Source of the DNA: a virus
Length of the DNA stretch: 52,653 nt
UHGV virus genome: UHGV-0083175
Reading direction: 5' to 3' (one strand)
Of this stretch, positions 753 to 35,545 are shown piece by piece. The notes under the pieces were generated by a model. That model was not told the origin of the DNA. It saw nothing but the letters and a program-made list of their open reading frames with translations, and searched no databases. A program made the translations under genes and the position numbers. Positions within the stretch are counted from its first letter, which is position 1; the number at the start of each line of letters is the position of its first letter.

Positions 753-838
753 TATTTATGCCAGACCCCTGCTGATTCTGTTGATTGGGGAATCACAGAA
801 TATCACCAGAGGATGGTTCGTCACAAGATGAGGCAATT

Positions 839-2303: not shown

Positions 2304-2336
2304 ATCTGAGAAACGATTTTGTCGGAGGAAATTTTA

Positions 2337-3053
2337 ATGGAAACCGTATTTGACGCACTGAAAGCACTGAAAAGAGCCTCTTCACAGGTAGTGGCGGCCC
2401 GCCTTGGAATCAGCCGTGAAGATGCGGTCAACGAACTGTGGAAACTGAAGCGCCGCGGTGAAGCGGATAACAAGGGTTCGATGTGGTGGCTGATTCAGGC
2501 TGGTGAAAGTGAACCGGTGTCACCGGTACCGAAAGTGACAGCGCAAATGCTGATTAAGGCGATTGAACAACATGGCCCACAAACGGCAGATGAGCTGGCA
2601 CTGATGTTCGGGATTACCTCCCGCCGGGCGAATTCATCGCTGGCCATGGCAATCAGCAAAGGGCGTCTGATTCGCGTGAATCAGGGCGGTAAATTTCGTT
2701 ACTGCATACCGGGCGCTGATTTACCGGCAGAGCCGGAAGCTGCATCCGTAGCGGAAACAGATGGTAAAGCCTTTCCTCAGCCAGCAGGTGTTGCGTTACC
2801 AGTCCGGGAAACGACGACACAGGAAGAAATGAAAACAGAAATCGTGGAAGACATTGTGAAGTTACAGCCATCGGTCACCGAAACGAAAGCAGATGACCTG
2901 ATTCTACCATCGCTGCATGTGGCTAACCGCGAGCTGCGCCGGGCAAAAGGTCAGGTTCAGAAGTGGGAGCGTGTCTGCGCCGCGCTGCGGGAACTGAACA
3001 AACACAGGGATATTCTCCGGGATATTACCGCCACCAGAGAGCTGCTGCGGTGA
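2337..3053 (+). CDS. hypothetical phage protein
   Basis: ORF 2319..3053; ATG 2337 has a GGAGGA RBS; no recognised catalytic motif. Confidence 0.45.
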
Positions 3054-10195: not shown

Positions 10196-10235
10196 TATTG
10201 CAGGATTAGTTACGTACCGTTATTATCCTGCGCCC

Positions 10236-10310
10236 GGCCCTTTAGCTCAGTGGTGAGAGCGAGCGACTCATAATCGCCAGGTCGCTGGTTCAAATCCAGC
10301 AAGGCCACCA
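10236..10310 (+). tRNA. tRNA with CAU anticodon (ileX-like tRNA-Ile2/Met), acceptor stem one nt short
   Basis: Hand-folded cloverleaf: D-arm GCTC/GAGC, anticodon loop CTCATAA, T-arm GCTGG-TTCAAAT-CCAGC, 3' ACCA; 3' acceptor strand AAGGCC versus expected AAGGGCC. Confidence 0.55.
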
Positions 10311-10319
10311 TATCACATA

Positions 10320-10396
10320 CCGCCATTAGCTCATCGGGATAGAGCGCCAGCCTTCGAAGCTGGCTGCGCGGGGTTCGAGTCCTCGATGGCGGTCCA
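10320..10396 (+). tRNA. tRNA-Arg (anticodon UCG)
   Basis: Complete 77-nt cloverleaf: acceptor CCGCCAT/ATGGCGG, anticodon loop CTTCGAA, T-arm CGGGG-TTCGAGT-CCTCG, 3' TCCA. Confidence 0.8.
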
Positions 10397-20881: not shown

Positions 20882-21247
20882 ATGGCTGAGCTTCGTACAC
20901 TCCAGAGCAGAATCAAAACACTGAATACCCGACGGGTGAATATTCTGAAGGGTGAACAGCGTCGTGTCAGTGGCAGTGCACGTGTTTCCCTCAAGCGTCA
21001 TATCTGGCTCAGGGATGCCGGGCAGTGCTGTCTCTGTGGTCGTGTGGTTGACCTCTGTGACAGTGAACTCGATCACCGAATTGCACTTCAGTTCGGTGGT
21101 GGTAATGAGGAGACGAATCTCTGGACGCTCTGTACCGAATGCCATCGACAAAAGTCTGCTCGTGAAGCGGCGGGTGGTATGCCGGACCCGACGCTGCCGG
21201 AGGTGTCCGGAGGTAGTGGCAGAGCGGACGACATCATCGGACTGTAA
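20882..21247 (+). CDS. HNH endonuclease (packaging-associated)
   Basis: CLCGRVVD...ELDHRIALQFGG...NLWTLCTECH HNH motif; immediately upstream of a cos-like site and terS. Confidence 0.8.
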   Translation: MAELRTLQSRIKTLNTRRVNILKGEQRRVSGSARVSLKRHIWLRDAGQCCLCGRVVDLCDSELDHRIALQFGGGNEETNLWTLCTECHRQKSAREAAGGMPDPTLPEVSGGSGRADDIIGL

Positions 21248-21249
21248 CC

Positions 21250-21312
21250 CGACCGGGGGGGGGGAATCATTCGGGGTAAAAAACGATCGCTCCGGACACC
21301 CCCCCCCCTCTC
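21250..21312. other. candidate cos (cohesive-end packaging) site of the prophage
   Basis: G10 run and complementary C10 run flanking AACGATCGCTCCGGACACC, between HNH and terS; paralogous site at 30051..30112. Confidence 0.45.
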
Positions 21313-21538
21313 ACCCAGAGAAAAAATTCCCGTTTCAGGTCAGTTAACATGTTAACTGGCTTCACGGGCATTTTTGCAGTTTTTATCTTTATTATTCAGT
21401 TTGTTGCGCGGAAAAAATGTTAACAGGCTTTTTCAGCAAATGTTAACCAGGCAGCAGTTAACATTTGCGGCATGAGACGCCGGGAAAAATGGGCTGAACC
21501 ATACCCGGCTGAGTGCATTCTGGACCCGGGAGGAGGCT

Positions 21539-22102
21539 GTGCTGACAACGCAAAAACGAAAATTTGCGCTGGCGCTCATGTCCGGGAAAAACAAAACAGC
21601 GTCAGCCATTGCCGCCGGTTATTCGGCGAAGACAGCCAGGGTTAAAGGCTCGCAGCTGGCAAAAGATCCGGAGGTGCTCGCGTTTATAGCCCGTAAGCAG
21701 TGCGAGACGGTAGAGGTGGATGAGGTTCCTGTTTACCGGCAGAAAAAATCAGAGCAGGAGGATAAACCCCGTCGCCGTGAGGCGGCTGCAATACCACAGC
21801 CGGACGAAACAAATCCGGAGATGCCTCTGCCCGTGGTGATATCTCCTGGTATTGAGTATATGGATGACGGTCTTCCCGATCCGGTGAAAGCGATGGGGCG
21901 TCTTCTGGTGGAGAACATTAATACCGACCCCAGGCTGGCGCTGGATGTGGCTTATAAGCTGGCACAGTTCACGCACCACAAAAAAGGGGATGCCGGTAAA
22001 AAATCGGCAAAAGGTGACGCGGCGAAAAAAGCGGCTAACCGTTTTGCGGTGCCACCACCCCCCCGACTGGTGGTGAATAATGATAATGAGGGCAGCGGAT
22101 GA
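21539..22102 (+). CDS. terminase small subunit
   Basis: N-terminal HTH KRKFALALMSGKNKTASAIAAGYSAKTARVKGSQLAKDPEV; directly upstream of the terL N-terminal fragment. Confidence 0.8.
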   Translation: MLTTQKRKFALALMSGKNKTASAIAAGYSAKTARVKGSQLAKDPEVLAFIARKQCETVEVDEVPVYRQKKSEQEDKPRRREAAAIPQPDETNPEMPLPVVISPGIEYMDDGLPDPVKAMGRLLVENINTDPRLALDVAYKLAQFTHHKKGDAGKKSAKGDAAKKAANRFAVPPPPRLVVNNDNEGSG

Positions 22103-22380
22103 TACCTGTGTGGAGCACGGCCTGCCCGGACTGGGCAGAGCGCCTGAAAAAGGGGCTGTCGATTATTCCGGCTCCGATTTACCCGGACCAGGCCGCACAT
22201 GCCCTGGCGATTTTTAAACAACTGCGGATTGTGGATGCACCGGGCAGCCCGACGTTCGGGGAGTCCTGTGCACCGTGGGTGTTTGATCTGGTGGCTGCCC
22301 TGTTTGGCTCCTACGATGCGCAGACCGGTGTACGCCATATAAAGGAAGTGTTCATTCTGATACCGAAAAATAATAGATAA
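22099..22380 (+). CDS. terminase large subunit, N-terminal fragment (gene split by satellite insertion)
   Basis: 93 codons ending ...KEVFILIPKNNR*; the remaining terL sequence resumes in frame ~9.5 kb downstream (...IPKKNSKSTLAAG...). Confidence 0.7.
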   Translation: MIPVWSTACPDWAERLKKGLSIIPAPIYPDQAAHALAIFKQLRIVDAPGSPTFGESCAPWVFDLVAALFGSYDAQTGVRHIKEVFILIPKNNR

Positions 22381-22543
22381 TAAAAAAACAAATAAAGTGT
22401 TTATTTGTTTTTTTCTACGTTTTATCAAATAGTTATGGTTATCTTTGCTCTATGTTTTTATGTGTTGCTAACGGCAGATTTTAACGCTTTGTTGTTGACA
22501 TGGACTAACCGATGAACCATAAACTTTATCTGTAGGGGCATTT

Positions 22544-23779
22544 ATGCTAATCAAACCGTTAAGCCATGTTGAAGTAAAGAACGCAAAACCAAAGGATAAA
22601 GATTACTCGCTTCATGATGGATTTGGGTTGTTGTTATATGTTTCAAGAAAAGGCTGTAAAACATGGCGTTTCAGGTATCAGCACCCCGACACCAAAAAAA
22701 GACAAACGCTTACCATTGGTCGTTATCCAGATTATTCAATAGCTGAGGCAAGAGAGGAAAGGGATAAAGCAAGGAAATTACTTTCAAGAGGTGTGGATCC
22801 TAATGAGTCTAAGCGCAAGGCAAAATCTGAACGAATTATGCTGAGGTCACAGACCTTTGAAAAAATAACAAATAACTGGTTTGAATTGTATTTAAAGGGA
22901 AGCAGAAGGGAAAATACAGTAAAAACAGTTAGCAGAGTTATTAAAGTTTATATTATTCCTGATTTTGGGGGTTGGACGATTTATGATATACGTGCTGATA
23001 ATGTATTGTCAGTTATTAGAAAATATGACGAAACGCCTGCACAGCAACGAAAAATAGTACAGGTTATGCGTCTTGTTATGGATTATGCCGTGAATGCTGG
23101 AATTGTTCAGTTTAATCCGTTGTCTCGTATTCATAAAGCGCTTCCACCTATGGAAGAGAAAAGCTTTAAGGCGCTGCCCATAGAAAGATTACCCGCTTTT
23201 CTTAATTGGCTTGAGTCAGAAAGTTGTCATCCATCAATAACATATGGTCTTCTTTTTATGATGCTGACAATGACCAGACCTAACGAGGCATTAGGTGCCA
23301 AATGGTCAGAACTGGACGTTGACAGAAAACTATGGACCATTCCAGCAGAGAGGATGAAGGGGAAAAGAGAACACATTATTCCTTTATCTTTACAGGCTGT
23401 TGAAGTGATAATGCGAATGAGAAAAATAAAACAAAGTGAGTATGTTTTTTTTGGTGCTCATTCAGTTGCAAAGGCAATAACGAGAGATGCTATTGTCAGT
23501 AGGGTTAATAAAAGCGAGTTTGCAAAGGAAATGACAGTACACGGATTCAGGTCAATGTGGAGCACATTACTCAATGAAGAGGGATTTAACCCCGATGTTA
23601 TAGAGGCTGCACTTGCACATAAGAGCGGAAATACTGTAAGGGATATTTATAACAGGACGTCATATATTGAACAGCGGGTAATAATGATGCAATGGATAGG
23701 TGATTTTGTCGATTCTGCAAGACGTGGGGTTATTGTTAGGACGCATGGTAAACGCGGTTTAAAATTGGTAAATGAATAA
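22544..23779 (+). CDS. int: tyrosine integrase (P4-type)
   Basis: 411 aa; P4-integrase-type N-terminus and C-terminal catalytic domain (HGFRS...LAH...Y); adjacent to the left junction. Confidence 0.85.
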   Translation: MLIKPLSHVEVKNAKPKDKDYSLHDGFGLLLYVSRKGCKTWRFRYQHPDTKKRQTLTIGRYPDYSIAEAREERDKARKLLSRGVDPNESKRKAKSERIMLRSQTFEKITNNWFELYLKGSRRENTVKTVSRVIKVYIIPDFGGWTIYDIRADNVLSVIRKYDETPAQQRKIVQVMRLVMDYAVNAGIVQFNPLSRIHKALPPMEEKSFKALPIERLPAFLNWLESESCHPSITYGLLFMMLTMTRPNEALGAKWSELDVDRKLWTIPAERMKGKREHIIPLSLQAVEVIMRMRKIKQSEYVFFGAHSVAKAITRDAIVSRVNKSEFAKEMTVHGFRSMWSTLLNEEGFNPDVIEAALAHKSGNTVRDIYNRTSYIEQRVIMMQWIGDFVDSARRGVIVRTHGKRGLKLVNE

Positions 23780-23791
23780 GGTGTACAATAT

Positions 23792-23998
23792 ATGAATGAT
23801 ATAAATAATAGTCAGATTTTGTTGCGTGATGATGTGATGAAAAAATTGCGATACAACAACGCGGCTGCTTTTCATATGTTTTTTAACAGAACGCCGGACT
23901 TTCCAAAGCCCTTCAAGATAGGCCGTCGCAATGCCTGGTATGAAGAGGATGTGCAAAATTGGCTTGATGAACAGCGAAGAAAAGCCCTTGAGGAGTGA
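23792..23998 (+). CDS. alpA: AlpA-family excisionase / transcriptional regulator
   Basis: 68 aa; FPKPFKIGRRNAWYEEDVQNWL matches the AlpA/Xis HTH signature; immediately downstream of int. Confidence 0.7.
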   Translation: MNDINNSQILLRDDVMKKLRYNNAAAFHMFFNRTPDFPKPFKIGRRNAWYEEDVQNWLDEQRRKALEE

Positions 23999-24056
23999 AC
24001 GTAAAAGAACAGGCGTCCTTAAAGGTCGCCTGTTATGTAGTAGTGGAATATTACAA

Positions 24057-24419
24057 TCATGTTTTTTTTGATGCTATGTAAGCAAGAATGCACGGTTCCT
24101 TTGCCAGTTGTGACCCTTTCGATCTGGCTGTTTTCGCACTGTATCCAGCAAGAATAGCGCACTGTGTCTGATTCAGCCCTTTCATCATGTAATCAGCAAA
24201 TTTCTTTTTTTGCTTCGTCAGCTTGTTTGTTTGGTCGTTTTTATCATCGTTTGCGGTAAAAACATTAGATGTGGTCTTAAGCTGATGTTTACAGGCTTCA
24301 ATTACCCACGATGAGAAGTTGGAGTGCGCTTTATCTCTTTCTATGCGTTTTTCAATATCAGCTAATAAGTCAGGCGGGAAGCGGATCCCCTTAAGTATCG
24401 CTTTGCGTGTTTTGTCCAT
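24057..24419 (-). CDS. RHH domain fused to a terS-like HTH domain (putative satellite regulator)
   Basis: N-terminal GIRFPPDLLADIEKRI...NFSSWVIEACKHQL (RHH); C-terminal KKKFADYMMKGLNQTQCAILAGYSAKTARSKGSQLAKEP near-identical to the helper TerS N-terminus. Confidence 0.55.
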   Translation of the reverse strand: MDKTRKAILKGIRFPPDLLADIEKRIERDKAHSNFSSWVIEACKHQLKTTSNVFTANDDKNDQTNKLTKQKKKFADYMMKGLNQTQCAILAGYSAKTARSKGSQLAKEPCILAYIASKKT

Positions 24420-24692
24420 TCATGGCCCCAAAATAAGTAGTGTTAACTTGTTACTATTTAACAGTTTTTGAGGGTGTGTTAAACAAAAAACTGGTTTGTG
24501 TTTAACGAAAATCGCTTCGTGTTAAACACGTTGCCTAGTTAGTGGGGACAGATGACGAGTTGATCAAACCTGCCGGATAACAGGCAAAGAAAAGGCCACC
24601 TGTCACGGTGGCCCTTCGACACAAATTTCGCGTTATCCCCAACGCATGAGCATCGCCGACAATGCCACATTTACGGCTGGTGGACAAGGCTA

Positions 24693-24920
24693 TCAGCCAG
24701 GCGGTCGGTTTTTAGTGGCTTTTAACCGCCGTGGGTATTTCTCGACAAAATCTTCAAGGGCAAATTTTTCTGGTGGCATTAAGCGCGGCGCTGGTGGTGG
24801 TATTTTTGTTCTGGTTAGTTCTTCCTCAACTCTGGCGCAGGCTTCTGACTGCCTTTGCCGGATGATTTCATCATCTTGCGTTTGCGTGTCTTGTATTGGT
24901 GATAGTGTGTTGTTGGTCAT
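24693..24920 (-). CDS. hypothetical protein
   Basis: 75-aa minus-strand ORF downstream of the small RHH gene; weak RBS. Confidence 0.3.
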   Translation of the reverse strand: MTNNTLSPIQDTQTQDDEIIRQRQSEACARVEEELTRTKIPPPAPRLMPPEKFALEDFVEKYPRRLKATKNRPPG

Positions 24921-24977
24921 GATACTGCCCTGTAAAGCAATGCGCCGTAGTACCTCACACCACGGCGCTGATAGTGA

Positions 24978-25157
24978 TTATTCTGATTCTTTGGCCTTGC
25001 GGCGCTGGCGGCGTTTGATCTCGCCTTTTGCTGCCGTAACTAGAAATCCGGCGGTACTTTCGCCAGGTTCTTTAAGTTGCTCAATATCGGTCATTACCTC
25101 ATGCGGGATTCTGACCGTTGTCATTTGTGATTTTGCGTTCTTTGCACCTGTTGCCAT
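24978..25157 (-). CDS. small DNA-binding protein (possible satellite repressor)
   Basis: 59-aa ORF with AGGAGA RBS (MATGAKNAKSQMTTVRIPHEVMTDIEQL...); faces a divergent promoter region containing inverted repeats. Confidence 0.45.
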   Translation of the reverse strand: MATGAKNAKSQMTTVRIPHEVMTDIEQLKEPGESTAGFLVTAAKGEIKRRQRRKAKESE

Positions 25158-25177
25158 TTCTGGTTCTCCTGATAATC

Positions 25178-25270
25178 GGTGTATTTCAGTATACGCAAAA
25201 AAAAAGATAAAAAAAGTCTTGCGGTGTATTTCACCTGAATGTAGATTTAAAAATGAAGGTGAAATACACC
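25178..25270. promoter_or_regulatory. operator-like inverted repeats in the satellite divergent control region
   Basis: GGTGTATTTCACC (25223-25235) and its exact reverse complement GGTGAAATACACC (25258-25270), plus a third half-site GGTGTATTTCAG at 25178. Confidence 0.45.
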
Positions 25271-25343
25271 TAAAACAACAACGCCCCGCAGTGATGGGAA
25301 CACATACGGGGCGTCTAACCAACAACGTAAACGAGGAGCCGTT

Positions 25344-25541
25344 ATGGTTGCCGTAAATCATATACCACACCTTGTACACACACAAACGGCCTTTGTGTGG
25401 CGTTTTCTGGCACTGAGTGCCGGAGAATCTCAAATCATCCACGTAACCGCCTGGACGGAACGCGAAGCGCGTAACCGTTGCCCGTCCGGTTGTGTTGCTG
25501 TATTTGCCGCCCGTATTCGTCAGGAGGTGCGCCATGATTAA
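25344..25541 (+). CDS. hypothetical protein (first gene of the satellite rightward operon)
   Basis: 65-aa ORF with GAGGAG RBS. Confidence 0.35.
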   Translation: MVAVNHIPHLVHTQTAFVWRFLALSAGESQIIHVTAWTEREARNRCPSGCVAVFAARIRQEVRHD

Positions 25542-25746
25542 TCTGTCACTTACTGACCTTAACCGCATTCAGTTTCGTGAGAAATTCACAGGGCAGCTAC
25601 TGGTCAATGTGGATAAAGGTCGCGTGGTGTGTAATTACCACTTACCAGATGAAGCAATTGTCGCCACAAGGGAATCATTACAGGAAATCACAAAACGTGC
25701 CGGAATGATTAACACGAATATTCAGGGGATGCTTTATGCACAATAA
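25534..25746 (+). CDS. hypothetical protein
   Basis: Internal ATG with CAGGAGGTG RBS; 70 aa. Confidence 0.4.
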   Translation: MINLSLTDLNRIQFREKFTGQLLVNVDKGRVVCNYHLPDEAIVATRESLQEITKRAGMINTNIQGMLYAQ

Positions 25747-25975
25747 AACCACACCGGACGCAGCCGCCGAAGCCATCAAAACGCTGATGCACGCGCTGAT
25801 TGATATTTCTGTTATCGCGGACAGGGCACATAAGCACGCCACCAGCGAAACAGAATATGCCGGTGCTTTCGTTCCTCACTCACTGGCTGTCATGCAATTT
25901 AGTGCTGATACGGCGCTGAATGAGGCCAAAGCTATCCTGATTGCTGATTGTGAAAATGGGGGGGGTTATGCGTGA
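25736..25975 (+). CDS. hypothetical protein
   Basis: 79-aa ORF, translationally coupled to neighbours. Confidence 0.35.
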   Translation: MHNKTTPDAAAEAIKTLMHALIDISVIADRAHKHATSETEYAGAFVPHSLAVMQFSADTALNEAKAILIADCENGGGYA

Positions 25976-26201
25976 TGATCGTTTTAATTCCCTGAAACAG
26001 GAATTTTCCGGCGTTCCTGATGATGCGGCTGATGCGCTTTCGTCAATGCCAGAACTTATTAGAGCGGCTTTTTTCTTACTTTCCACGAGAGAATATAAAT
26101 CAACGGGGCTTGATGTACTGAATATCGCCGCCGATTATGCGGAATATGTGGCAGAGGCGCGTTATAGAAGAAAATTTCCTGAGGATGTAAGCCATGCGTG
26201 A
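25968..26201 (+). CDS. hypothetical protein
   Basis: Internal start MRDDRF... of ORF 25941..26201. Confidence 0.35.
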   Translation: MRDDRFNSLKQEFSGVPDDAADALSSMPELIRAAFFLLSTREYKSTGLDVLNIAADYAEYVAEARYRRKFPEDVSHA

Positions 26202-26427
26202 TATTTACCACCAAACAATAGACCGCGCATTTCTTGCACTTTCTCACAGTGAAAACATGATGGAAATATTGCGCATATGGCTTGAAACACTTGGCGACAA
26301 TGAACGCGACAAACAAAAATCAAGAATTGCCACGGCATTAATAACGCTTCTTGAGCCTGTAATAATGGAACTGCAAGAAATAGATCTATTGCACGACAGA
26401 TATAAAGAACAGCACATCGGAGAATAA
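26194..26427 (+). CDS. hypothetical protein
   Basis: 77-aa ORF overlapping the upstream stop. Confidence 0.35.
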   Translation: MRDIYHQTIDRAFLALSHSENMMEILRIWLETLGDNERDKQKSRIATALITLLEPVIMELQEIDLLHDRYKEQHIGE

Positions 26428-26432
26428 AAATA

Positions 26433-26732
26433 ATGAAACTTAAATATTCTGGCTTAACTGCCAGTGGCAACACTCACCCTAAATTTACGCGCGGTGATAT
26501 TTACCGCGACCAGTACGGCGGCACGGTAATGATTAAGGGCGTGGCGGGACGGTGCGTAACTTACCGCCGTGAAGGTTACGAATATGATTGCGTGATGCCT
26601 GTTTATCAGTTCCGGCGTGATTTTTCTCTGGTACAGACCGCGCCGCATAACGTGCCCACCAGCAACGCCAGGGCACGGGCAAACATCCAGAAGCTGAAAA
26701 CCATGATTAACGGATTCAGGGGTAAAAAATGA
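26433..26732 (+). CDS. hypothetical protein
   Basis: 99-aa ORF immediately upstream of the primase-helicase gene. Confidence 0.4.
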   Translation: MKLKYSGLTASGNTHPKFTRGDIYRDQYGGTVMIKGVAGRCVTYRREGYEYDCVMPVYQFRRDFSLVQTAPHNVPTSNARARANIQKLKTMINGFRGKK

Positions 26733-28126
26733 AACTGGCACCGAATGTAAAACTGTTACCGAAAGATAAACACACCGAAGCGGTTATTTTTGCGGGTGAT
26801 AATGCTCACTCATTTGCAGAGCACTACATCATTGCACAGGCCAAAAAAGCAGGCGATCCAGTCCCTCCCGTTTACCTGGGGCGTTATCAGTTAAGCGAAC
26901 TGGATAACTTGCAGATTGTTGATAAAGGTCGGTTCAGGGCGAAAGTGATACGTGCCGGAAATATTGACGAAGTGCAGTTGTTAACCATCGCCACGAAACT
27001 GGCAATCGCAGGAGTCCAGGAAGCGCGCCTGTTTTCTGAAAATTTCGAATTGCTGGAGGAATGGAGCGACCAGCTTACACGGCTTAGGGAGACATGGGAA
27101 CGCGGGGAAAGCCTGAGCCACCAGCGAAAAACAAAGCTACCGATGAGCGTTGGATCTGCCGGATACGACACGCAATTAGATTACGTGGTAAAGGGGATTA
27201 TTCCGGCATCGTCGCTATGCAGCATATACGGGGCGAGCGGTTCATATAAATCGTTCCTTGCGGGTTCGTGGGCGTGTCACGTTTCCACGGGCCGCCAGTG
27301 GGGAGGCCGCAGGGTTGCACATGGTGCAGTTCTCTATGTGGTTGGTGAAGGCGGTATTGGTGTTCCGCGTCGTGTAAAAGCCTGGGAGGTTGTGCACGGT
27401 GAGCAGGTGAAAAATCTGTATCTGGTAAACCGTCCCATCTTTCCGGCTGTCCCGCTTGATGTTGATGAAATGGTTATCGCTGCCCGCCAGGTGGAACGGG
27501 AAACCGGTAAACCTGTACGCATGATTATTCTGGATACGCTGGCGCGTTGCTTTGGCGGCAATGATGAAAATGACTCCCGCGACATGGGGGCATTTATCCG
27601 TGGTTGTGACGAGCTTAAACGGCGCACAGGGGCCACTGTGCTGGTGGTTCACCATTCCGGCAAGGATGAAACAAAGGGGGCGCGTGGTTCCAGTGCATTT
27701 CGTGCTTCGCTGGATGCTGAATACCGGATACGCAGGGAGGACGCAGGAAGCGAAGCGCTGGTTATCTCATGCACCAAAATGAAGGACGCGGAGGAACTCA
27801 AAGAGGCTGCCTATGATTTGCGGGTGGTGGAGCTTTTTACCGACGCTGACGGGGAGTTAATCACGTCGCTGGTGGTGGTGGATAAGTCGCGCCCTCCCGT
27901 TGAACTGGAGCGCATCGAAGAGGCAGGCAACAAGACGGAAAACCATACCGCGCTATGGGGGTGTATCCGTTCACGCACACAGAACGGCGACAAGTGCACG
28001 ATCCCGCTGTTACGTGATGACATGAAAAAACTGGGGTACGAAATAAAGCACTTCCGGCGCTGGCTGGGCAAGCTGGAAAAAGACGGCGTTATCTATGTTG
28101 ACGGCGATGATGTAGGGCCACTGTAA
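26729..28126 (+). CDS. satellite replication protein (RecA-fold primase/helicase-type ATPase)
   Basis: 465 aa; Walker A-like GASGSYKSFLAG, Walker B region MIILDTLARCFGGNDEND and VLVVHHSGKD. Confidence 0.75.
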   Translation: MKLAPNVKLLPKDKHTEAVIFAGDNAHSFAEHYIIAQAKKAGDPVPPVYLGRYQLSELDNLQIVDKGRFRAKVIRAGNIDEVQLLTIATKLAIAGVQEARLFSENFELLEEWSDQLTRLRETWERGESLSHQRKTKLPMSVGSAGYDTQLDYVVKGIIPASSLCSIYGASGSYKSFLAGSWACHVSTGRQWGGRRVAHGAVLYVVGEGGIGVPRRVKAWEVVHGEQVKNLYLVNRPIFPAVPLDVDEMVIAARQVERETGKPVRMIILDTLARCFGGNDENDSRDMGAFIRGCDELKRRTGATVLVVHHSGKDETKGARGSSAFRASLDAEYRIRREDAGSEALVISCTKMKDAEELKEAAYDLRVVELFTDADGELITSLVVVDKSRPPVELERIEEAGNKTENHTALWGCIRSRTQNGDKCTIPLLRDDMKKLGYEIKHFRRWLGKLEKDGVIYVDGDDVGPL

Positions 28127-28328
28127 AAAGTGGGGGGCAAAAGTGGTGGGCATGGGGAATTTAACAAAATTTAAACACGACCCCCCACTTTTTGACCTGT
28201 ATACATCCCAAAAAGTGGGGAGCAAAAAAATACTTATGAAACAGCATGATAAAAATTACAAATCCCACGCCTTTAACGAGATGGGGAATTGTGAAAAGTG
28301 GGGAGTAAAAGTGGGTATAGGTGGGGAG
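28127..28328. repeat. iteron cluster (candidate satellite replication origin)
   Basis: Repeated AAAGTGGGG(A/G) motifs at 28127, 28140, 28210, 28294, 28307, 28320 plus inverted copy CCCCCCACTTTTTG at 28181, directly after the replication gene. Confidence 0.5.
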
Positions 28329-28580
28329 ATGACACAAAAACGCAGAGACAGAACACAGCCAAAATATAAAGCGTTAGACATGACAGAGCACGCTTTAAAG
28401 GTGGCAATCAGAACGATAGACCGCCACGCGGGGGAAGGATACGCGAAGGAACATCCCGACCTGATAAGCGCATTCATGACCACAGCGGCGGCAAACTTTG
28501 CCACGCTGACAGAACGGGAGATTGCCGAAGCGGAACAGGTAACAACCATCAACGTTAAAACCGGAGAGTTGGAATCATGA
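28329..28580 (+). CDS. hypothetical protein
   Basis: Internal start MTQKRRD... chosen because upstream codons lie in the iteron region. Confidence 0.35.
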   Translation: MTQKRRDRTQPKYKALDMTEHALKVAIRTIDRHAGEGYAKEHPDLISAFMTTAAANFATLTEREIAEAEQVTTINVKTGELES

Positions 28581-28882
28581 GCGAACCAAAATTTGGTGAA
28601 AAACTTTACAAGCACAACGGACGGATCACGATTCTGCAAATAAGCGCAGCTACACCAGGCTGGTGGGTTGAAACAGACGAAGGATCCTCACCCGTGGCAT
28701 CATGGGCGCTTTGTGCGCTTAGTTACCCTGACCGCGATGTGTATCAGGATATTCTGCCTGTGATATCCACTGACAAAGGCATGAAACCCGTAGACATCAA
28801 AAACATGGGTTTTCAGTGCGTAATGCTCACTGAAAAAATGATGGAAGAGATGAAAAAGAACAACGCCGGATCGCTTCACTGA
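28577..28882 (+). CDS. hypothetical protein
   Basis: 101-aa ORF overlapping the upstream stop. Confidence 0.4.
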   Translation: MSEPKFGEKLYKHNGRITILQISAATPGWWVETDEGSSPVASWALCALSYPDRDVYQDILPVISTDKGMKPVDIKNMGFQCVMLTEKMMEEMKKNNAGSLH

Positions 28883-28891
28883 GGTGGCAAT

Positions 28892-29290
28892 ATGACAGCA
28901 CAAATTGCAGCTTACGGGCGGCTGGTGGACGACCCGCAGGTAAAACAGACCAGCAAGGGCACACCGATGACGCTGGCGCGTATGGCGGTATCTTTGCCAT
29001 GCAGCCAGGCACAGGACGGACAGGCGACGTTATGGTTATCGGTCATCGCATTTGGCAAACAGGCCGACTTCCTGGCTAAACATCAAAAAGGAGATGTTGC
29101 CAGCGTATCCGGCACGATGCAGGTAAGCCAGTGGACAGGCCAGAACGGCGAAACGCGGCAGGGCTGGCAGGTTATCGCAGACAGCGTAATCAGTGCCCGA
29201 GGCGGGAACAGACGCAAAACCACAGGCACACAGGGTAATCAGCCACCAGCGGGAGGCGATGACCCTTACGGTGATGGTATTCCGTTCTGA
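28892..29290 (+). CDS. ssb: single-stranded DNA-binding protein
   Basis: OB-fold-like core (LARMAVS...LWLSVIAFGKQAD...) and acidic C-terminal tail ending DDPYGDGIPF. Confidence 0.7.
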   Translation: MTAQIAAYGRLVDDPQVKQTSKGTPMTLARMAVSLPCSQAQDGQATLWLSVIAFGKQADFLAKHQKGDVASVSGTMQVSQWTGQNGETRQGWQVIADSVISARGGNRRKTTGTQGNQPPAGGDDPYGDGIPF

Positions 29291-29300
29291 GGGGGTGAGG

Positions 29301-29573
29301 ATGGTACATGACCGCATAGCGGAGGAACTCGAGGCGAAAGGATTTTACCGGAGGGCGGCGGCGCGATGGGGTGAAGTCATGCAGCTGGTGGAGACAGACA
29401 AGGAACGGTATCAGGTTACGATGCGACGGCTGGAATGTTCCAGGAAGGCACAGAAGCCACCGGAGCCGCCGGATAACTTCGGAGACCTGAGAAAGGCAGT
29501 CGATCGCACTTATGCTGAAATGGGTATAGATGGTGCAGGCGATGAAGTATGGCGTAATTACCCAGACAGCTAA
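29301..29573 (+). CDS. PerC-family transcriptional regulator-like protein
   Basis: Internal ATG 29301; AEELEAKGFYRRAAARWGEVM resembles the PerC/Pch N-terminal motif. Confidence 0.45.
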   Translation: MVHDRIAEELEAKGFYRRAAARWGEVMQLVETDKERYQVTMRRLECSRKAQKPPEPPDNFGDLRKAVDRTYAEMGIDGAGDEVWRNYPDS

Positions 29574-29579
29574 GCACAT

Positions 29580-29603
29580 AGCCGGAGCAATCCGGCTTTT
29601 TTT
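29580..29603 (+). terminator. rho-independent terminator
   Basis: AGCCGGA-gcaa-TCCGGCT stem followed by TTTTTTT. Confidence 0.6.
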
Positions 29604-29691
29604 CGATCTCACATATCTTTAAAAATGGTTGATTGATTATAATCTATCGAAAATAATGATTATGAGATGATAAGCATCAGGAGGAAACAAA

Positions 29692-29886
29692 GTGGAACAG
29701 ATAAAGCAAAGCGCTACCGTGATGATTGATCACGAGATCCTAAACGAGCTTAAAAAACTTCAATTCGATGTTATTCGCCGGATGAATGAAGCTGGTATAT
29801 ACGGCAGAGCCGCCACGCCAACAGTAGGCCATCTTGCTCGCGTGCTGTTACGCGAACGCCTGGGCATTGCAACAGGTGAGGAATAA
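29692..29886 (+). CDS. hypothetical protein
   Basis: GTG start after AGGAGGA RBS; 64 aa. Confidence 0.35.
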   Translation: MEQIKQSATVMIDHEILNELKKLQFDVIRRMNEAGIYGRAATPTVGHLARVLLRERLGIATGEE

Positions 29887-29888
29887 CA

Positions 29889-30050
29889 ATGGTTATCACA
29901 GAACGCGAGGCAAGCATCATTAAAGCCATTGGCGAGGAAACAAGAGACACGATAGCGCCATTAATGGAAAAGATCGCAGAGCTTGAGACACGAATAAACA
30001 AGCTGAGTGATGAAGTTGAAGGCCTGATCTCGTTACTCGGTGAGCAATGA
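29889..30050 (+). CDS. small protein resembling the N-terminus of the helper head-associated repeat protein
   Basis: 53 aa, MVITEREASIIKAIGEE... versus MNERELSIIRALGEEF... at 36907; ends at the satellite cos-like site. Confidence 0.35.
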   Translation: MVITEREASIIKAIGEETRDTIAPLMEKIAELETRINKLSDEVEGLISLLGEQ

Positions 30051-30112
30051 CAGGGGGGGGGGAGTGTTCCGGCCGGAAAGTCGATCGCCCTGGACACCGC
30101 CCCCCGTCTCAT
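30051..30112. other. candidate cos site of the satellite
   Basis: G-run, GTCGATCGCCCTGGACACC core and C-run, paralogous to 21250..21312. Confidence 0.45.
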
Positions 30113-30180
30113 TCGTAGAAAATTTTGCTTTTCAAAAAAGTTACACGAAAAGTTACACCCCCTCAAAACGAGGTTTTTGC

Positions 30181-30669
30181 ATGGCATTAACGACCAAAAA
30201 AAAGCGGTTTGCTGATGCGTTATCAAGGGGCGCAAATCCCACGGAAGCCGCTATACATGCGGGATACAGCGAAAAGACCGCAAGGGTTAAAGGCTGGCAG
30301 CTATCCAACGATCCTGAGGTGAAAAAGTATCTTAAGGTTGTCACTCCTGATGTAACTTTTCAGGTTACAAAACCGAAAAAAGTTACAAAGAAAGTTACCG
30401 AAAAAGTTACACCGGAACGGGCATCAATCAGCACCATAGAACGGATGGACAACGGCTTGCCCGACCCTATCAAAGCTATGGGCAGGATACTGGCTGACAA
30501 CATAGACACAGATCCAAAACTGGCTTTAGATGCCGCGTTTAAGCTGGCCCAGTTCACCCACCGCAAGATCGGCAGCATTGGGAAAAAAGAGGTTAAAAAA
30601 CTCAATGCCGCGAATGTCTCCTCAAATCGGTTCCCCATCCCTAAGCCACCAACAGGCTTAAAACACTGA
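30181..30669 (+). CDS. terminase small subunit (satellite copy)
   Basis: Internal ATG 30181; N-terminal HTH KKRFADALSRGANPTEAAIHAGYSEKTARVKGWQLSNDPEV and C-terminal LALDAAFKLAQFTH homologous to the helper TerS. Confidence 0.75.
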   Translation: MALTTKKKRFADALSRGANPTEAAIHAGYSEKTARVKGWQLSNDPEVKKYLKVVTPDVTFQVTKPKKVTKKVTEKVTPERASISTIERMDNGLPDPIKAMGRILADNIDTDPKLALDAAFKLAQFTHRKIGSIGKKEVKKLNAANVSSNRFPIPKPPTGLKH

Positions 30670-30680
30670 GGTAGCGAACT

Positions 30681-30842
30681 ATGAACGAATACATCACAGA
30701 CCCTATTGATGTACTCACGGAAATCATGAACGACAAGCAGCAGCCAACCGAAATACGGTTACAGGCTGCCGCTGTTCTGATGCCATATTTTCACGAAACT
30801 CTAACCCCATGTTACCAGGAGGAAGAAGATGATGATTTCTAA
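30681..30842 (+). CDS. hypothetical small acidic protein
   Basis: 53-codon ORF between satellite terS and the MCP-like gene; not in the supplied track. Confidence 0.3.
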   Translation: MNEYITDPIDVLTEIMNDKQQPTEIRLQAAAVLMPYFHETLTPCYQEEEDDDF

Positions 30843-31755
30843 AAACATGAAAGGCGTGTCGGCAGTTCGCGCCGCCAGCGTGCTTACATCGTGTAAATTC
30901 AGCCATGCAGACGCAATTGAAATGACGAAAAAAAATGATCCGGCAGTATCGAAATTTCTTGAAAAATCCATTGTTGCCGGAATGACTACGGATAATATGC
31001 CGTCGCTGGTGGCAGAGCCGATAGTAAGAGAGCTTGGCGAGTATATTTTTTCGCAGTCTGTACCAGGCAAGCTAATCAGCAGCGCGCTGAATCTTCCGTT
31101 TGGCGCAAAATTGCAGTCAATATCAGGCAAGGGTAGTAAATGGCTTAAAGAAGCCGAAGAAATCCCTGTCAAAGAGGGAGAAGTAAACGAAAGTGCGCTA
31201 AAACTGTGCAAACTTGGCGCTATTGTGATGCTGAATAACGAGCTAATCAAATTTAGCACCCCTGGTACCAATTCAGCGATCAGAGACTTGATCACATCGG
31301 AATCGGTGAAAGAAATAGATAAAAAATTTCTTTCCAGTGACCAGGAGTTGGCGGGCGTATCCCCTGAGGGCGTGCTTAATGGTGCTGATGAGGCCGAAAA
31401 CTTCATAGAGCTTTTCAAAAAGCACATAGCGAACGGTAACACGCTTGCCACGTCGTCGCTAATCTTGCCCGTAGAAAACGCCTTACAGCTTACTGATGCT
31501 GAGTTCTGGCAGATAGAGCTTTTGAGAATACCGGTAATTGTGAGCGAACAGGCGGATCGCATGATGCTGATAGACGCTCAAAAGCTGATTATTAACGTTG
31601 AAGCCACGGTTATAACCCCAACTGATGAGGCGGTAATAAAAACCGAATCAGGGACGGTTAGCCTTTTCCAGAATGACGCTACAGCGTTCAGGGCAATCAC
31701 CTATTGCGGATGGCAAAAACTCGATAAGGCCGTCACCGTTCTGGCGCAATCTTGA
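30829..31755 (+). CDS. major capsid protein homolog (HK97-fold MCP domain only)
   Basis: 308 aa with AGGAGGA RBS; aligns along its length with the MCP portion of the helper protease-MCP fusion (AGMTTD/AGTTTD, LGAIVMLNNELIKFSTPG / VSAIAVLTEELIRFSSPA, IPVIVSEQ / LPVIVSQY). Confidence 0.65.
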   Translation: MMISKNMKGVSAVRAASVLTSCKFSHADAIEMTKKNDPAVSKFLEKSIVAGMTTDNMPSLVAEPIVRELGEYIFSQSVPGKLISSALNLPFGAKLQSISGKGSKWLKEAEEIPVKEGEVNESALKLCKLGAIVMLNNELIKFSTPGTNSAIRDLITSESVKEIDKKFLSSDQELAGVSPEGVLNGADEAENFIELFKKHIANGNTLATSSLILPVENALQLTDAEFWQIELLRIPVIVSEQADRMMLIDAQKLIINVEATVITPTDEAVIKTESGTVSLFQNDATAFRAITYCGWQKLDKAVTVLAQS

Positions 31756-31974
31756 TGTAGTGCGCCGCATTACTGGTTATGTGAATGCGGCGCATAGGGC
31801 CTACGAAAAACAAAATTAGTTTACGTTATCTTATGTAACCATATTTAACGGAGAAGACTAAAACGCGGACTATTTAGTGTCAGTGCGTGAGCCTAACAGC
31901 ATAATAAACAAGATATTAAGATAGCTTTACGCATACCCAAAAAAAACAGCAAGTCCACGCTGGCTGCCGGGATC

Positions 31975-33333
31975 ATGATGACGGCGCTGTTACTGAACTG
32001 GCGGCAGGCGGCGGGCTACACCATTCTGGCCCCGACCGTGGAGGTGGCGGCTAATGCCTTCAATCCTGCCAGGGATATGGTACGACGGGACGATGATCTG
32101 GATGACCTCTGTCAGGTGCAGACACATATCCGGACCATCACCCATCGGGTGACGGACACCACCCTGAAGGTGGTGGCAGCCGATCCGAATACGGTGTCCG
32201 GTATCAAGTCCGTGGGGACACTGATTGATGAACTGTGGCTGTTTGGCAAGCAGTACAAAGCGGAGGACATGTTACGTGAAGCCATAGGTGGCCTTGCCTC
32301 CCGCCCGGAAGGGTTTGTGGTGTATACGACCACCCAGTCGAATGAACCGCCCGCCGGGGTGTTCAGACAGAAACTGCAGTACGCCCGGGATGTGCGCGAC
32401 GGCAAAATTCATGATCCGCACTTTCTGCCGGTGATATTTGAGCATCCGCCGGAGATGGTGGAGCGCGGTGAGCACCTGCTGATGGAAAACCTCGCCATGG
32501 TCAATCCGAATCTCGGTTATTCGGTGGATGAGGCCTTTCTGTACCGGGAGTATCGTAAAGCCCGGGAAGCCGGTGAAGATACATTCCGGGGGTTCATGTC
32601 AAAACACGCCAATGTGGAAATTGGTCTTGCCCTGCGTTCTGACCGCTGGGCGGGTGCGGATTTCTGGGAGCAGCAGGGCAGGCGCGTCAGCCTGGACGAT
32701 ATTCTGCAGCGCGCTGATGTGGTGACGGTGGGGATTGACGGCGGGGGCCTGGATGATCTGCTGGGAATGTACGTGATTGGCCGTGACAGGGAAACCCGCG
32801 AATGGCTGGGCTGGGGCCATGCCTGGGCGCATGAAACCGCGGTGGTCAGACGGAAGAGTGAGGCATCCCGTTTTCAGGATTTTGTGGCCTGTGGAGACAT
32901 GACGATTGTCCGTCGGGTCGGGGATGACACGGCGGAAGTGGCGGAGTATGTGCGTCGTATTCATGAGGCTGAGTTACTGGATCATATCGGTATTGACCCG
33001 TCAGGTGTGGGGCAGATTCTGGATTCACTGGCGGAAGCCGGGATCCCCGACGGAATTGTTGTGGGGATAAGCCAGGGCTGGAAGCTGGGCGGGGCCATCA
33101 AAACCACCGAGCGCAAACTGGCTGAGGGAGTGCTGGTGCATGGTGGTCAGCCACTGATGGCCTGGTGCGTTGGCAATGCCCGGGTGGAGCCTAAAGGTAA
33201 CGCCATCCTTATTACCAAACAGGCCAGCGGACGGGGGAAAATTGACCCGCTGATGGCGCTGTTCAATGCGGTATCCCTGATATCCCTGAATCCGGAGCCC
33301 AAAAAGAAAGAATATGCGGTTTTTTTCATATAA
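31975..33333 (+). CDS. terminase large subunit, C-terminal portion (split gene)
   Basis: Frame open upstream to 31897 with no start codon, encoding ...IPKKNSKSTLAAGIMM (Walker A-like); LIDELW Walker B, nuclease motifs VTVGIDGGG and IGIDPSG. Confidence 0.7.
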   Translation: MMTALLLNWRQAAGYTILAPTVEVAANAFNPARDMVRRDDDLDDLCQVQTHIRTITHRVTDTTLKVVAADPNTVSGIKSVGTLIDELWLFGKQYKAEDMLREAIGGLASRPEGFVVYTTTQSNEPPAGVFRQKLQYARDVRDGKIHDPHFLPVIFEHPPEMVERGEHLLMENLAMVNPNLGYSVDEAFLYREYRKAREAGEDTFRGFMSKHANVEIGLALRSDRWAGADFWEQQGRRVSLDDILQRADVVTVGIDGGGLDDLLGMYVIGRDRETREWLGWGHAWAHETAVVRRKSEASRFQDFVACGDMTIVRRVGDDTAEVAEYVRRIHEAELLDHIGIDPSGVGQILDSLAEAGIPDGIVVGISQGWKLGGAIKTTERKLAEGVLVHGGQPLMAWCVGNARVEPKGNAILITKQASGRGKIDPLMALFNAVSLISLNPEPKKKEYAVFFI

Positions 33334-33396: not shown

Positions 33397-35334
33397 GTGA
33401 CTCTTAAACGGGCCTGCTCCCTGCTGACGGTGAAATCCTTCAGTGAGGATGAGCGGGTGATCACCGGGATTGCGTCAACGCCTTCTCCGGATCGGGATGG
33501 TGACATCCTGGAGCCGGAGGGCGCGGAGTTTGGCAGTGCGATCCCGTTTCTCTGGCAGCATGACCATTCCCGCCCGGTGGGGCAGTGTACGGTGCGCCGG
33601 GTCAGCGAAGGGCTGGAAATCACGGCAACACTGGTGAAGCCCGTGCCGGATATGCCGTCGCAACTGGCTGCCCGGCTGGATGAGGTCTGGGCGGCCATTA
33701 AGACCGGGCTGGTCAGGGGGCTGTCCGTGGGCTTCCGTCCCCATGAATACACCTTTCTGGACGGAGGTGGACTGCATTTTCTGCGCTGGGAGCTGATGGA
33801 GGTGTCTGCCGTTACCGTGCCCGCGAATGCGGAATGCACCATCCGGACCATTAAATCTTACGACCGCCCGTTTTCTGCCGCGTCCGGCAACCGGAAACCG
33901 GTGGTGAAAATCGCATCTTCTGCCGGCGCTGCGGCACAGTCAACAACCGTTTTTCATAAGGAAAAGACCATAATGAATATTGGCGAACAGATTAAAAGTT
34001 TTGAAAACAAGCGTGCAGCGCTGGCAGCCTCCCTTGAGGAGGTCATGACCAAAGCCGCAGAGGAAGGGCGCACGCTGGATGTGGAGGAGGAGGAGCATTA
34101 CGACAACACCGCAGCGGAAATCCGTCAGGTGGATGCGCACCTGAAGCGCCTGCGTGAACTGGAAGCCGGTAAGGCCGCCACGGCGCAGCCAGTGAAACAG
34201 GCCGGTAACGGGAATGTGGCCGCGGTGGCTTCTGCGCCGGTGATCCGTGTGGAGCAGAAACTGGATAAGGGGATTGGTTTCGCACGTTTTGCCAAATCGC
34301 TGGCTGCGGCTAAAGGTGTCCGCTCTGAAGCCCTGGAAGTGGCCCGTCGTCAGTATCCGGATGACAGTCGTCTGCATCATGTCCTGAAATCGGCAGTGGG
34401 CGCGGGGACCACCACGGATCCGCAGTGGGCAGGCAGCCTGTCTGAATATCAGGAATACGCACAGGACTTTATTGATTACCTGCGTCCTCAGACCATTATC
34501 GGGCGATTTGGTCAGGGCGGGATCCCTGCACTTCGTCAGGTGCCGTTCAATATCCGTGTGCACGCCCAGGTGTCCGGCGGTGCTGCCGGCTGGGTGGGTG
34601 AGGGTAAGGCAAAACCCCTGACGAAGTTTGATTTTGAATCCATCACCTTCAGTCATGCGAAGGTGTCGGCCATTGCGGTACTGACGGAAGAATTGATCCG
34701 TTTTTCCAGTCCGGCTGCTGATGCACTGGTCCGTAATGCGCTGGCGGAAGCGGTGGTGGCGCGTCTGGATACAGACTTTGTGGACCCGAAAAAAGCGGCG
34801 GTGGCAGATGTCTCCCCGGCGTCCATCACCCATGATGTGAAGGGCACGGCATCAAGCGGTAACCCGGATGCGGATGCAGAGGCTGCGTTTGGACAGTTTG
34901 TGGCAGCAAACCTGCAGCCCACCGGTGCGGTCTGGCTGATGTCCAGCACAAATGCCCTGGCACTGTCCATGCGTAAAAATGCGCTGGGTCAGAAAGAATA
35001 CCCGGACATGACCCTGCTGGGTGGCTCCTTCCAGGGGCTGCCGGTGATTGTCTCTCAGTACGTGGGTGACCAGCTGGTGCTGGTGAATGCCCCGGATATT
35101 TATCTGGCGGATGACGGCGGCGTGGCAGTGGATATGTCCCGCGAGGCATCACTGGAAATGCAGTCTGAGCCGACCGGCGACAGTACCACGCCGTCGCCGG
35201 TGGAGCTGGTTTCCATGTTCCAGACAGGCAGCGTGGCCATCCGTGCGGAGCGCTGGATCAACTGGCGTCGTCGCCGTACCGCGGCGGTGGCGGTGATCAC
35301 CGGAGTGAACTATGGCAGTGCGTCCGGCGGCTGA
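33397..35334 (+). CDS. prohead protease fused to major capsid protein (HK97 type)
   Basis: N-terminal S78-protease-like region (GIASTPSPDRDGDILEP...LWQHD...SAVTVPAN), then scaffold-like coiled coil and HK97-fold MCP domain. Confidence 0.8.
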   Translation: MTLKRACSLLTVKSFSEDERVITGIASTPSPDRDGDILEPEGAEFGSAIPFLWQHDHSRPVGQCTVRRVSEGLEITATLVKPVPDMPSQLAARLDEVWAAIKTGLVRGLSVGFRPHEYTFLDGGGLHFLRWELMEVSAVTVPANAECTIRTIKSYDRPFSAASGNRKPVVKIASSAGAAAQSTTVFHKEKTIMNIGEQIKSFENKRAALAASLEEVMTKAAEEGRTLDVEEEEHYDNTAAEIRQVDAHLKRLRELEAGKAATAQPVKQAGNGNVAAVASAPVIRVEQKLDKGIGFARFAKSLAAAKGVRSEALEVARRQYPDDSRLHHVLKSAVGAGTTTDPQWAGSLSEYQEYAQDFIDYLRPQTIIGRFGQGGIPALRQVPFNIRVHAQVSGGAAGWVGEGKAKPLTKFDFESITFSHAKVSAIAVLTEELIRFSSPAADALVRNALAEAVVARLDTDFVDPKKAAVADVSPASITHDVKGTASSGNPDADAEAAFGQFVAANLQPTGAVWLMSSTNALALSMRKNALGQKEYPDMTLLGGSFQGLPVIVSQYVGDQLVLVNAPDIYLADDGGVAVDMSREASLEMQSEPTGDSTTPSPVELVSMFQTGSVAIRAERWINWRRRRTAAVAVITGVNYGSASGG

Positions 35335-35545
35335 GTCTGATAAGGAGGACGGGAGGCGTGTGCCTCCCGTAACAGGTTATGGCAAAGATCCGATATCTGC
35401 AGGGCACGCATGATGCCCGGGCCGGGGATATCCGTGATGTGGCACAGCCGTGTGCGGAGGTGCTGGTTCGCCTGGGAAAGGCGGAGTACATCACGGTGCG
35501 ACGTCCGGCAGGTCAGAAAAAGAAACGTGATGCGGAGCATGGCGA

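Follow-up and report, generated by a model that had tools for sequence, protein, structure and literature searches.

A predicted phage-inducible chromosomal island inside the terL gene of an Escherichia coli prophage encodes a small terminase and a short HK97-fold capsid protein homolog

The core components of proteobacterial phage-inducible chromosomal islands (PICIs) comprise integrase, AlpA, replication genes, a capsid-morphogenesis gene, and terS (PMC10085698), and of 29 reference Gram-negative PICIs, 21 have a major capsid protein (MCP) gene (PMC10111431; PMC6092414). Tommasini et al. 2023 stated that the PICI major capsid gene is not required for transfer, and proposed an origin of PICI late zones in which helper late genes are first captured and later lost (PMC10111431). 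Fillol-Salom et al. 2018 suggested that the capsid homolog of PmCI172 may make the small capsids of that element (PMC6092414). The proven satellite MCP homolog is Ccm of SaPIbov5, which redirects the capsid of a cos/HNH helper (Carpena 2016, PMC5052747; Hawkins 2021, PMC8569155). Ccm is 19.2% identical to the helper capsid protein, forms the pentamers of T=4 shells, converts a prolate head into a small isometric one, and is unable to form capsids alone (PMC5052747, PMC8569155). Here we describe virus genome UHGV-0083175, a stretch of 52,653 nt analyzed at full length (the window), which represents a lambdoid E. coli prophage (the helper) with a small island (the satellite) inside its late region. 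The late end of the satellite carries a cos site, a small terminase gene (terS), a gene for a 308-aa homolog of the helper MCP, and two 53-aa open reading frames (ORFs), orf53a and orf53b.

Positions 29600-31800 read as the late operon, for packaging and capsid, of a predicted Gram-negative PICI-type satellite. Its 308-aa product matched the Pfam family Phage_capsid with 28.8 bits (cutoff 24.2), and residues 8-297 aligned with residues 291-625 of the helper protease-MCP fusion at 22% identity (BLASTP E 1e-20). The AlphaFold2 model had a predicted local distance difference test value (pLDDT) of 82.6 and a predicted template modeling score (pTM) of 0.80. Its best Foldseek matches in the PDB were HK97-fold capsid proteins, including a SaPIbov5 procapsid entry and HK97, along with encapsulins; a sequence search of the protein against PDB chains gave no match. 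A sequence-only reading of this locus had proposed an HK97 fold for the product, and the profile and structure checks both bore this out.

The models also located the truncation. In the helper fusion model, residues 17-153 formed the protease, which a disordered linker joined to a pair of long coiled-coil helices (195-262). After a linker (266-285) came three short helices (293-332), and a further linker (334-349) led into the HK97 core (351-641). The 308-aa model began with three helices (10-50) and a short low-confidence linker (51-56), followed by the core. This three-helix segment of ~45 residues is homologous to helper residues 293-332. The satellite protein is thus modeled without the protease and without the coiled-coil scaffold, but the last helical piece ahead of the core was retained, and therefore it is not a bare mature capsid domain. 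The earlier description of an MCP homolog lacking the protease and scaffold parts was right for the protease and the coiled coil, but for the scaffold part as a whole it must be qualified by the retained helices.

The closest relatives of the 308-aa protein formed a family of ~305-335-aa proteins that also lacked protease and scaffold, with 600-670-aa protease-MCP fusions as more distant relatives. This family was defined by an exhaustive HMMER search; the word-indexed protein search gave 3-8 capsid relatives. One short family member belonged to a metagenomic minimal element of integrase, AlpA, helicase, and MCP, and another lay at an island edge, adjoining chromosomal genes. Phage capsid proteins were no more than 27% identical to the 308-aa protein, and the matches among E. 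coli phages were the protease-MCP fusions of Stx1a, Stx2c, and PPompW. The ratio of nonsynonymous to synonymous polymorphism (pN/pS) for the MCP gene was 0.17-0.29, indicating purifying selection in relatives whose amino-acid identity spans 98% to 51%. The E. coli satellite MCP was ~16 residues shorter than its closest relatives from other sources, in the loop before a conserved VSLFQ strand (residues about 262-270; 31600-31700).

The cos site and terS proposed in the same reading were likewise recovered. A 59-nt pattern derived from the two cos copies (ten Gs, a 34-nt stretch that contains CGATCGC and GGACACC, and finally a run of C and TCTCA) matched the window exactly twice, once in the helper and once in the satellite, with no match expected by chance (100 shuffles). 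Both copies lay directly 3' of the stop codon of the preceding gene and just upstream of terS. The core was conserved in every related satellite fetched and in two other helper-type loci, phage or prophage (L001, L006), and the sequence CGATCGCCC(C/T)GGACACCGCCCCCCGTCTCA was nearly identical between satellites and helper-type phages (helper-type core in L001). In place of the satellite AAAAGTTACAC repeats, the helper cos flank had GTTAAC palindromes at 21341-21466. At its left edge the core has a run of G (30053-30062) whose length varied between 7 and 11 bases in satellites and helpers that were otherwise near-identical (L001, L002, L007-L016); this variation may reflect homopolymer slippage or assembly error.

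Satellite TerS matched Pfam Terminase_2 (41.6 bits) and phrog_641 (E 2e-43) and was 46% identical to helper TerS (E 2e-42). The alignment of the pair was conserved in the helix-turn-helix and the C-terminal part and diverged in the middle. A 209-aa ORF with a GTG start was considered as the terS gene and rejected in favor of the ATG start. The neighboring orf53b matched phrog_641 at positions 88-126, the central TerS region (E 7e-7). BLASTP of orf53b against helper TerS and against satellite TerS gave no match, so its link to TerS comes through the PHROG profile only. The ORF stayed beside terS and the MCP gene in related locus L017 at 80% amino-acid identity. By its sequence, orf53b could be a small-terminase competitor.

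The other 53-aa ORF, orf53a, had been described as a mimic of the N-terminus of a repeat-containing helper head protein. It was identical at 12 of the first 23 residues of the helper 461-aa protein with the start codons aligned (pairwise E 5e-5), and when the entire helper portion of the window was searched in six-frame translation the match had an E of 0.005. When the 19 satellite ORFs were compared to the helper, orf53a was the sole marginal match, between the strong matches (TerS, MCP, and fusion protein) and noise (E 0.06 or worse). It also matched phrog_1289 at positions 1-47 (E 0.0049), the family that contains the helper 461-aa protein, and had all invariant positions of the motif M-x-ERE-x-S-x-I-x3-GEE, which was kept in a diverged homolog from Salmonella phage FSL SP-016. 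The ORF was intact in all relatives, which were found only in E. coli (2 close relatives in the word-indexed protein search), and tblastn against phage genomes gave no match at E <= 1. Judged by these comparisons, the likeness to the helper N-terminus appears modest and beyond chance.

The 461-aa repeat gene starts on the portal stop codon (ATGA overlap), and portal-adjacent protein is a more fitting name for its product than head protein. In phages YYZ-2008, vB_EcoS-783R2, and Stx2a_WGPS6 this protein is in frame with the portal, and one PHROG family spans the portal at positions 1-451 and the portal-adjacent protein at 527-859. These arrangements suggest, speculatively, that the portal-adjacent N-terminus contacts the portal and that orf53a could compete there. 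The count of ~54-aa repeats in the portal-adjacent protein varied between phages, and its C-terminus had a weak CBM_5_12-like match. A search of the helper 461-aa protein against the PDB returned nothing informative.

All five late ORFs were under purifying selection (pN/pS about 0.1-0.3) and intact in relatives, including orf64, which had no family match in PHROGs or Pfam. The 2.2-kb late block, which begins at ~29600, was present at 95-99% identity in 220 of 5,426 complete E. coli genomes. Carriers in the sampled rows were mostly Shiga-toxin-producing serotypes. The block occurred in PICIs with differing integrases and replication genes and in at least three integration sites, which included prophage terL, the tRNA-Pro gene next to yejM, and the interval from cspD to clpS. 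The helper-type head gene encoding a protease-MCP fusion was present in 1,255 of the same 5,426 genomes. A search for related loci found no late-block relatives in one-genome-per-species contigs and only E. coli copies of 94-99% identity in viral contigs. Coordinates of the late-block features, the rest of the satellite, and the helper genes are given in Table 1.

Table 1 Features of the satellite and helper in the 52,653-nt window.
Feature	Position	Strand	Remarks
Helper packaging start	20882-22102	+	HNH endonuclease 20882-21247, cos 21255-21313, GTTAAC repeats, TerS 21539-22102
Satellite attL	22360-22373	+	Inside helper terL
Satellite integrase	22544-23779	+	Pfam Arm-DNA-bind_3, Phage_int_M, Phage_integrase
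AlpA-like regulator	23792-23998	+	Phage_AlpA 20.1 bits (cutoff 21), whole profile covered
120-aa YlcI/YnfO (DUF3950) + TerS-type helix-turn-helix fusion	24057-24419	-	Regulatory zone, opposite strand
Replication zone	26433-29290	+	DUF4222 protein, RepA-like helicase, two conserved proteins of no assigned function, single-stranded DNA-binding protein (SSB) (Pfam, PHROGs)
RepA-like helicase (AAA_25)	26729-28126	+	Pfam, PHROGs
SSB	28892-29290	+	Pfam, PHROGs
PerC-family transcriptional activator	29301-29573	+	Accessory gene; Pfam PerC E 5e-43
Promoter-like site at late module start	29629-29657	+	Consensus match only
orf64, conserved small protein	29692-29886	+	First late-module gene; intact in all relatives, pN/pS 0.19-0.32
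orf53a, 53-aa helical protein	29889-30050	+	N-terminal motif of helper portal-adjacent protein; pN/pS 0.12-0.19
Satellite cos core, presumed cosN	30053-30111	+	Paralogous to helper 21255-21313
Two direct AAAAGTTACAC repeats, presumed satellite-specific cosB	30136-30158	+	Downstream of satellite cos core
Satellite TerS, 162 aa	30181-30669	+	ATG at 30181; pN/pS 0.15-0.32
orf53b, 53 aa, acidic tail	30681-30842	+	TerS-core-like; 14-nt overlap with MCP start; pN/pS 0.10-0.29
HK97-fold MCP homolog, 308 aa	30829-31755	+	Three-helix N-terminal segment, short linker, HK97 core
attR	31933-31949	+	Helper terL resumes at ~31930 as ...RIPKKNSKSTLAAG... and runs to 33333
Helper head genes without a satellite counterpart set	33397-38292	+	Protease-scaffold-MCP fusion (33397-35334), portal (35546-36910), portal-adjacent repeat protein (36907-38292)

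The satellite measured 9,573 bp (9.57 kb) from attL to attR. An N-terminal terL fragment occupies 22099-22380, with the protein ending in ...EVFILIPKNNR before the stop codon. The intact 553-aa TerL of Stx1a phage Stx1_499, used for comparison, reads ...EVFILIPKKNSKSTLAAG, and helper terL is broken between IPK and KNSKST, at residues about 88-91 of 553. By this comparison the satellite sits in the Walker A codons, and helper terL is therefore whole only after excision. The attL and attR junctions share a common block, ATACC-N-AAAAA, and the GC content at the right junction climbs from about 0.46 to 0.58 (shift at ~32 kb). Strain 90-3040 had the same composite layout, with the satellite within helper terL. 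Treating the whole 24-42 kb region as one capsid-forming element was ruled out by the GC shift at ~32 kb and the visibly split terL. These features identify the satellite as a probable Gram-negative PICI of the helper-embedded type.

The helper gene order was HNH, cos, TerS, TerL, the 645-aa protease-scaffold-MCP protein, portal, the 461-aa repeat protein, connectors, and tail. The helper is a predicted lambdoid phage of the long-tailed type that packages by an HNH/cos system, encodes a protease-MCP fusion, and has relatives among the Stx1a-, Stx2c-, and PPompW-type phages. Elsewhere in the window, tRNA-Met and tRNA-Arg genes (10235-10396) and a second 645-aa ORF (14116-16053) formed a layout typical of Stx-type prophage late regions. 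This ORF matches, by position, a SASA-family esterase annotated in strain 90-3040, and no ORF the size of the Shiga toxin A subunit was present between it and the tRNA genes.

Outside the late block, the satellite had an integrase and an AlpA-like regulator, whose homolog in related locus L001 is annotated as a helix-turn-helix regulator. The helix-turn-helix of the 120-aa fusion protein was 66% identical to that of helper TerS (E 7e-21); this protein could be a repressor or a cosB-binding decoy. The annotation of strain 90-3040 treats the homolog of this protein as a partial terminase pseudogene. A terminator-like hairpin was found 3' of the PerC gene (29580-29597; terminator scan). Members of the PerC family have been linked in published work to activation of the LEE (locus of enterocyte effacement) pathogenicity island. 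The ORF lists between attL and attR contained no lysis, tail, portal, protease, connector, or TerL genes, in agreement with the earlier statement that the satellite relies on the helper for protease, portal, and terL, and the satellite must therefore borrow TerL, portal, protease, and connectors from the helper. Rfam over 22000-32500 detected no immunity RNA (C4, isrK) and no other family, and PADLOC gave no credible defense-family match.

We propose that satellite TerS, with helper TerL and HNH, starts packaging at the satellite cosB beside the shared cosN, and that the capsid homolog co-assembles in a Ccm-like manner with the helper fusion. We regard this scheme as about evenly balanced between right and wrong. 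Upon induction the satellite would excise, restoring helper terL, and replicate. Satellite TerS would recruit helper TerL and HNH via the conserved C-terminal part that it shares with helper TerS, and its diverged DNA-binding domain would read the satellite AAAAGTTACAC repeats and not the helper GTTAAC repeats. Packaging would then start at the satellite cos, the core of which (presumed cosN) the helper nuclease could cut. The 308-aa subunit, which lacks both a protease and a coiled-coil scaffold and for that reason, we propose, cannot assemble by itself, would co-assemble with the helper protease-scaffold-MCP protein in the manner of SaPIbov5 Ccm and the capsid protein of phage phi12, and co-assembly would shift shell geometry or composition toward satellite DNA and against the helper. 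The two 53-aa proteins would represent truncated copies of helper parts (the TerS core and the portal-adjacent N-terminus), probably with a competitor or adaptor role at the terminase and the portal.

Several points weigh against this scheme. Deletion of the capsid and decoration genes of EcCICFT073 left interference unrelieved (Fillol-Salom et al. 2018, PMC6092414), and that element is packaged into full-size capsids as multimers (PMC6092414). Only ~50 N-terminal residues precede the core of the 308-aa protein, versus the 87-residue delta domain of Ccm, and at 22% identity to the helper MCP, with a core ~50 residues shorter, the protein would not necessarily co-assemble. The support for orf53a is modest (E about 0.005). 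Genome size does not discriminate: given a helper genome of ~45-55 kb, as in related phages, five satellite copies (5 x 9.57 kb, ~48 kb) would fill a helper-sized head, and two copies (~19 kb) would fit a T=4 head. Every functional step in the scheme is inferred for this family, and the term capsid hijack, used in the sequence-only reading, is an interpretation of the same kind.

The capsid homolog might instead be a poison subunit for interference or defense, spoiling the procapsids of the helper or of other HK97-type phages and unneeded for satellite particles. Without its own scaffold or protease it would act only inside the assembly pathway of another phage, and it is far diverged from all phage MCPs (<=27% identity). 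PICIs also commonly interfere with helpers, and their capsid gene is stated to be unneeded for transfer (PMC10111431, PMC6092414). However, the EcCICFT073 deletion did not relieve interference with lambda (PMC6092414), the PADLOC search gave no defense-family match, and the tight operon linkage to cos and terS fits packaging as well as defense. We consider a poison subunit unlikely.

We place little weight on a second alternative, in which the homolog is a captured late gene with a non-assembly or marginal role, and satellite multimers enter ordinary helper heads with specificity from TerS and cosB only. The capture-then-loss model of Tommasini et al. (PMC10111431), the full-size capsids of EcCICFT073 (PMC6092414), and the near equality of five satellite copies to one helper genome length are consistent with such a history. 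Purifying selection across relatives from 98% to 51% amino-acid identity and the conservation of a whole family of similarly truncated proteins argue against a marginal role, and with no more than 27% identity to any phage MCP, the capture was not recent.

The late operon could also work as a coordinated set of decoys, with three cut-down helper copies (the MCP, the TerS core fragment, and the portal-adjacent N-terminus) beside a full TerS. Each piece would enter the matching helper assembly (shell, small-terminase ring, and portal vertex, respectively) and retune it for the satellite. We hold this broader interpretation to be doubtful. If it were true, the decoys combined with the insertion in helper terL would give the satellite control of packaging in timing as well as in specificity. 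To our knowledge, such a multi-point strategy from small protein mimics is undescribed for PICIs. Finally, small shells made mostly of the satellite capsid protein, with the helper fusion catalytic for scaffold and protease as a partial step toward capsid-forming PICIs (cf-PICIs), are very improbable: the complete compact fold, the retained helper-shared three-helix segment, and the encapsulin-like and small-T HK97 shells among the structural matches would suit them, but the satellite has no portal, connector, or scaffold genes and SaPIbov5 Ccm alone forms no capsids.

Ccm-like co-assembly together with TerS-directed packaging, the reading we prefer, bears on the role of capsid-like genes in most proteobacterial PICIs, for which the sole E. 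coli test, of a lambda-type gene, was negative and the sole proven case, Ccm, is from Staphylococcus. The HK97-type satellite capsid family is common in Shiga-toxin-producing E. coli, where the likely helpers are prophages with Stx1a/Stx2c-type heads. Given the numbers of genomes with the late block and with likely helpers, an effect on capsids or packaging could change how much Stx-type phage is produced and how PerC-carrying islands spread. The locus is also a tractable system, with helper and satellite together and truncation boundaries that define constructs.

Compared with known systems, the satellite has every sequence-testable feature of Gram-negative PICIs: an integrase/AlpA-type end, its own replication genes, and a late terS and capsid gene. 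Under the PICI definitions of Fillol-Salom et al. 2018 (PMC6092414) and of the SatelliteFinder model (PMC10085698), it shares with them a left-end integrase, an AlpA-type regulator, a module for replication, transcription to the right, a size of ~10 kb, a late zone with terS and an MCP-like gene, the absence of lysis and tail genes, and a PerC accessory gene. The best-studied member, EcCICFT073, differs in having no TerS, using Rpp, and carrying a lambda gpE-type capsid gene and a gpD-type decoration gene, whereas the present satellite has a full TerS, a presumed cosB of its own, an HK97/PF05065-type capsid gene, and two 53-aa ORFs. Rpp-type packaging was ruled out by the full-length TerS. Rpp and Ppi are nevertheless alike in being small satellite proteins that act on the helper small terminase, and orf53b could act likewise.

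SaPIbov5 is also a cos-type satellite of an HNH/cos helper with a distant HK97-fold capsid homolog (identity of 19.2%, against 22% in the present pair) whose N-terminal region is shorter than that of the helper protein, and it depends in the same way on the helper portal, protease, and terminase. In contrast, Ccm has an 87-residue delta domain and acts on a prolate helper capsid, and SaPIbov5 has no TerS and uses the cos of its helper directly. The present system has a Gram-negative host and a helper MCP that forms one polypeptide with protease and scaffold, and its arrangement is known from genes alone. The cf-PICIs (e.g., EcCIEDL933) likewise encode their own HK97-type capsid protein, TerS, and cos site, but their gene sets extend to TerL, portal, protease, HNH, and head-tail connectors, all of which are absent from the present satellite. 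Assignment to the cf-PICIs was ruled out by the absence of TerL, portal, and protease between attL and attR.

The satellite resembles helper-embedded PICIs (Tommasini, Mageeney and Williams 2023, PMC10111431) in lying inside a helper late gene in the same direction, with an attL/attR identity block and a late gene restored only by excision. Published helper-embedded terL sites are A_Terminase_1_132 and _246 (PMC10111431), and the present site is at the Walker A codons, so it is apparently an additional integration site of this kind. The sequence-only reading had set the satellite apart from Sid- or CpmB-type redirection and from cf-PICIs, and that separation holds. Its broader claim of novelty does not, since PICI capsid genes and SaPIbov5 Ccm came before and this kind of module is already described. 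What the locus adds to the known systems is the domain parse of a truncated capsid protein, two helper-like small ORFs, and an extra terL site.

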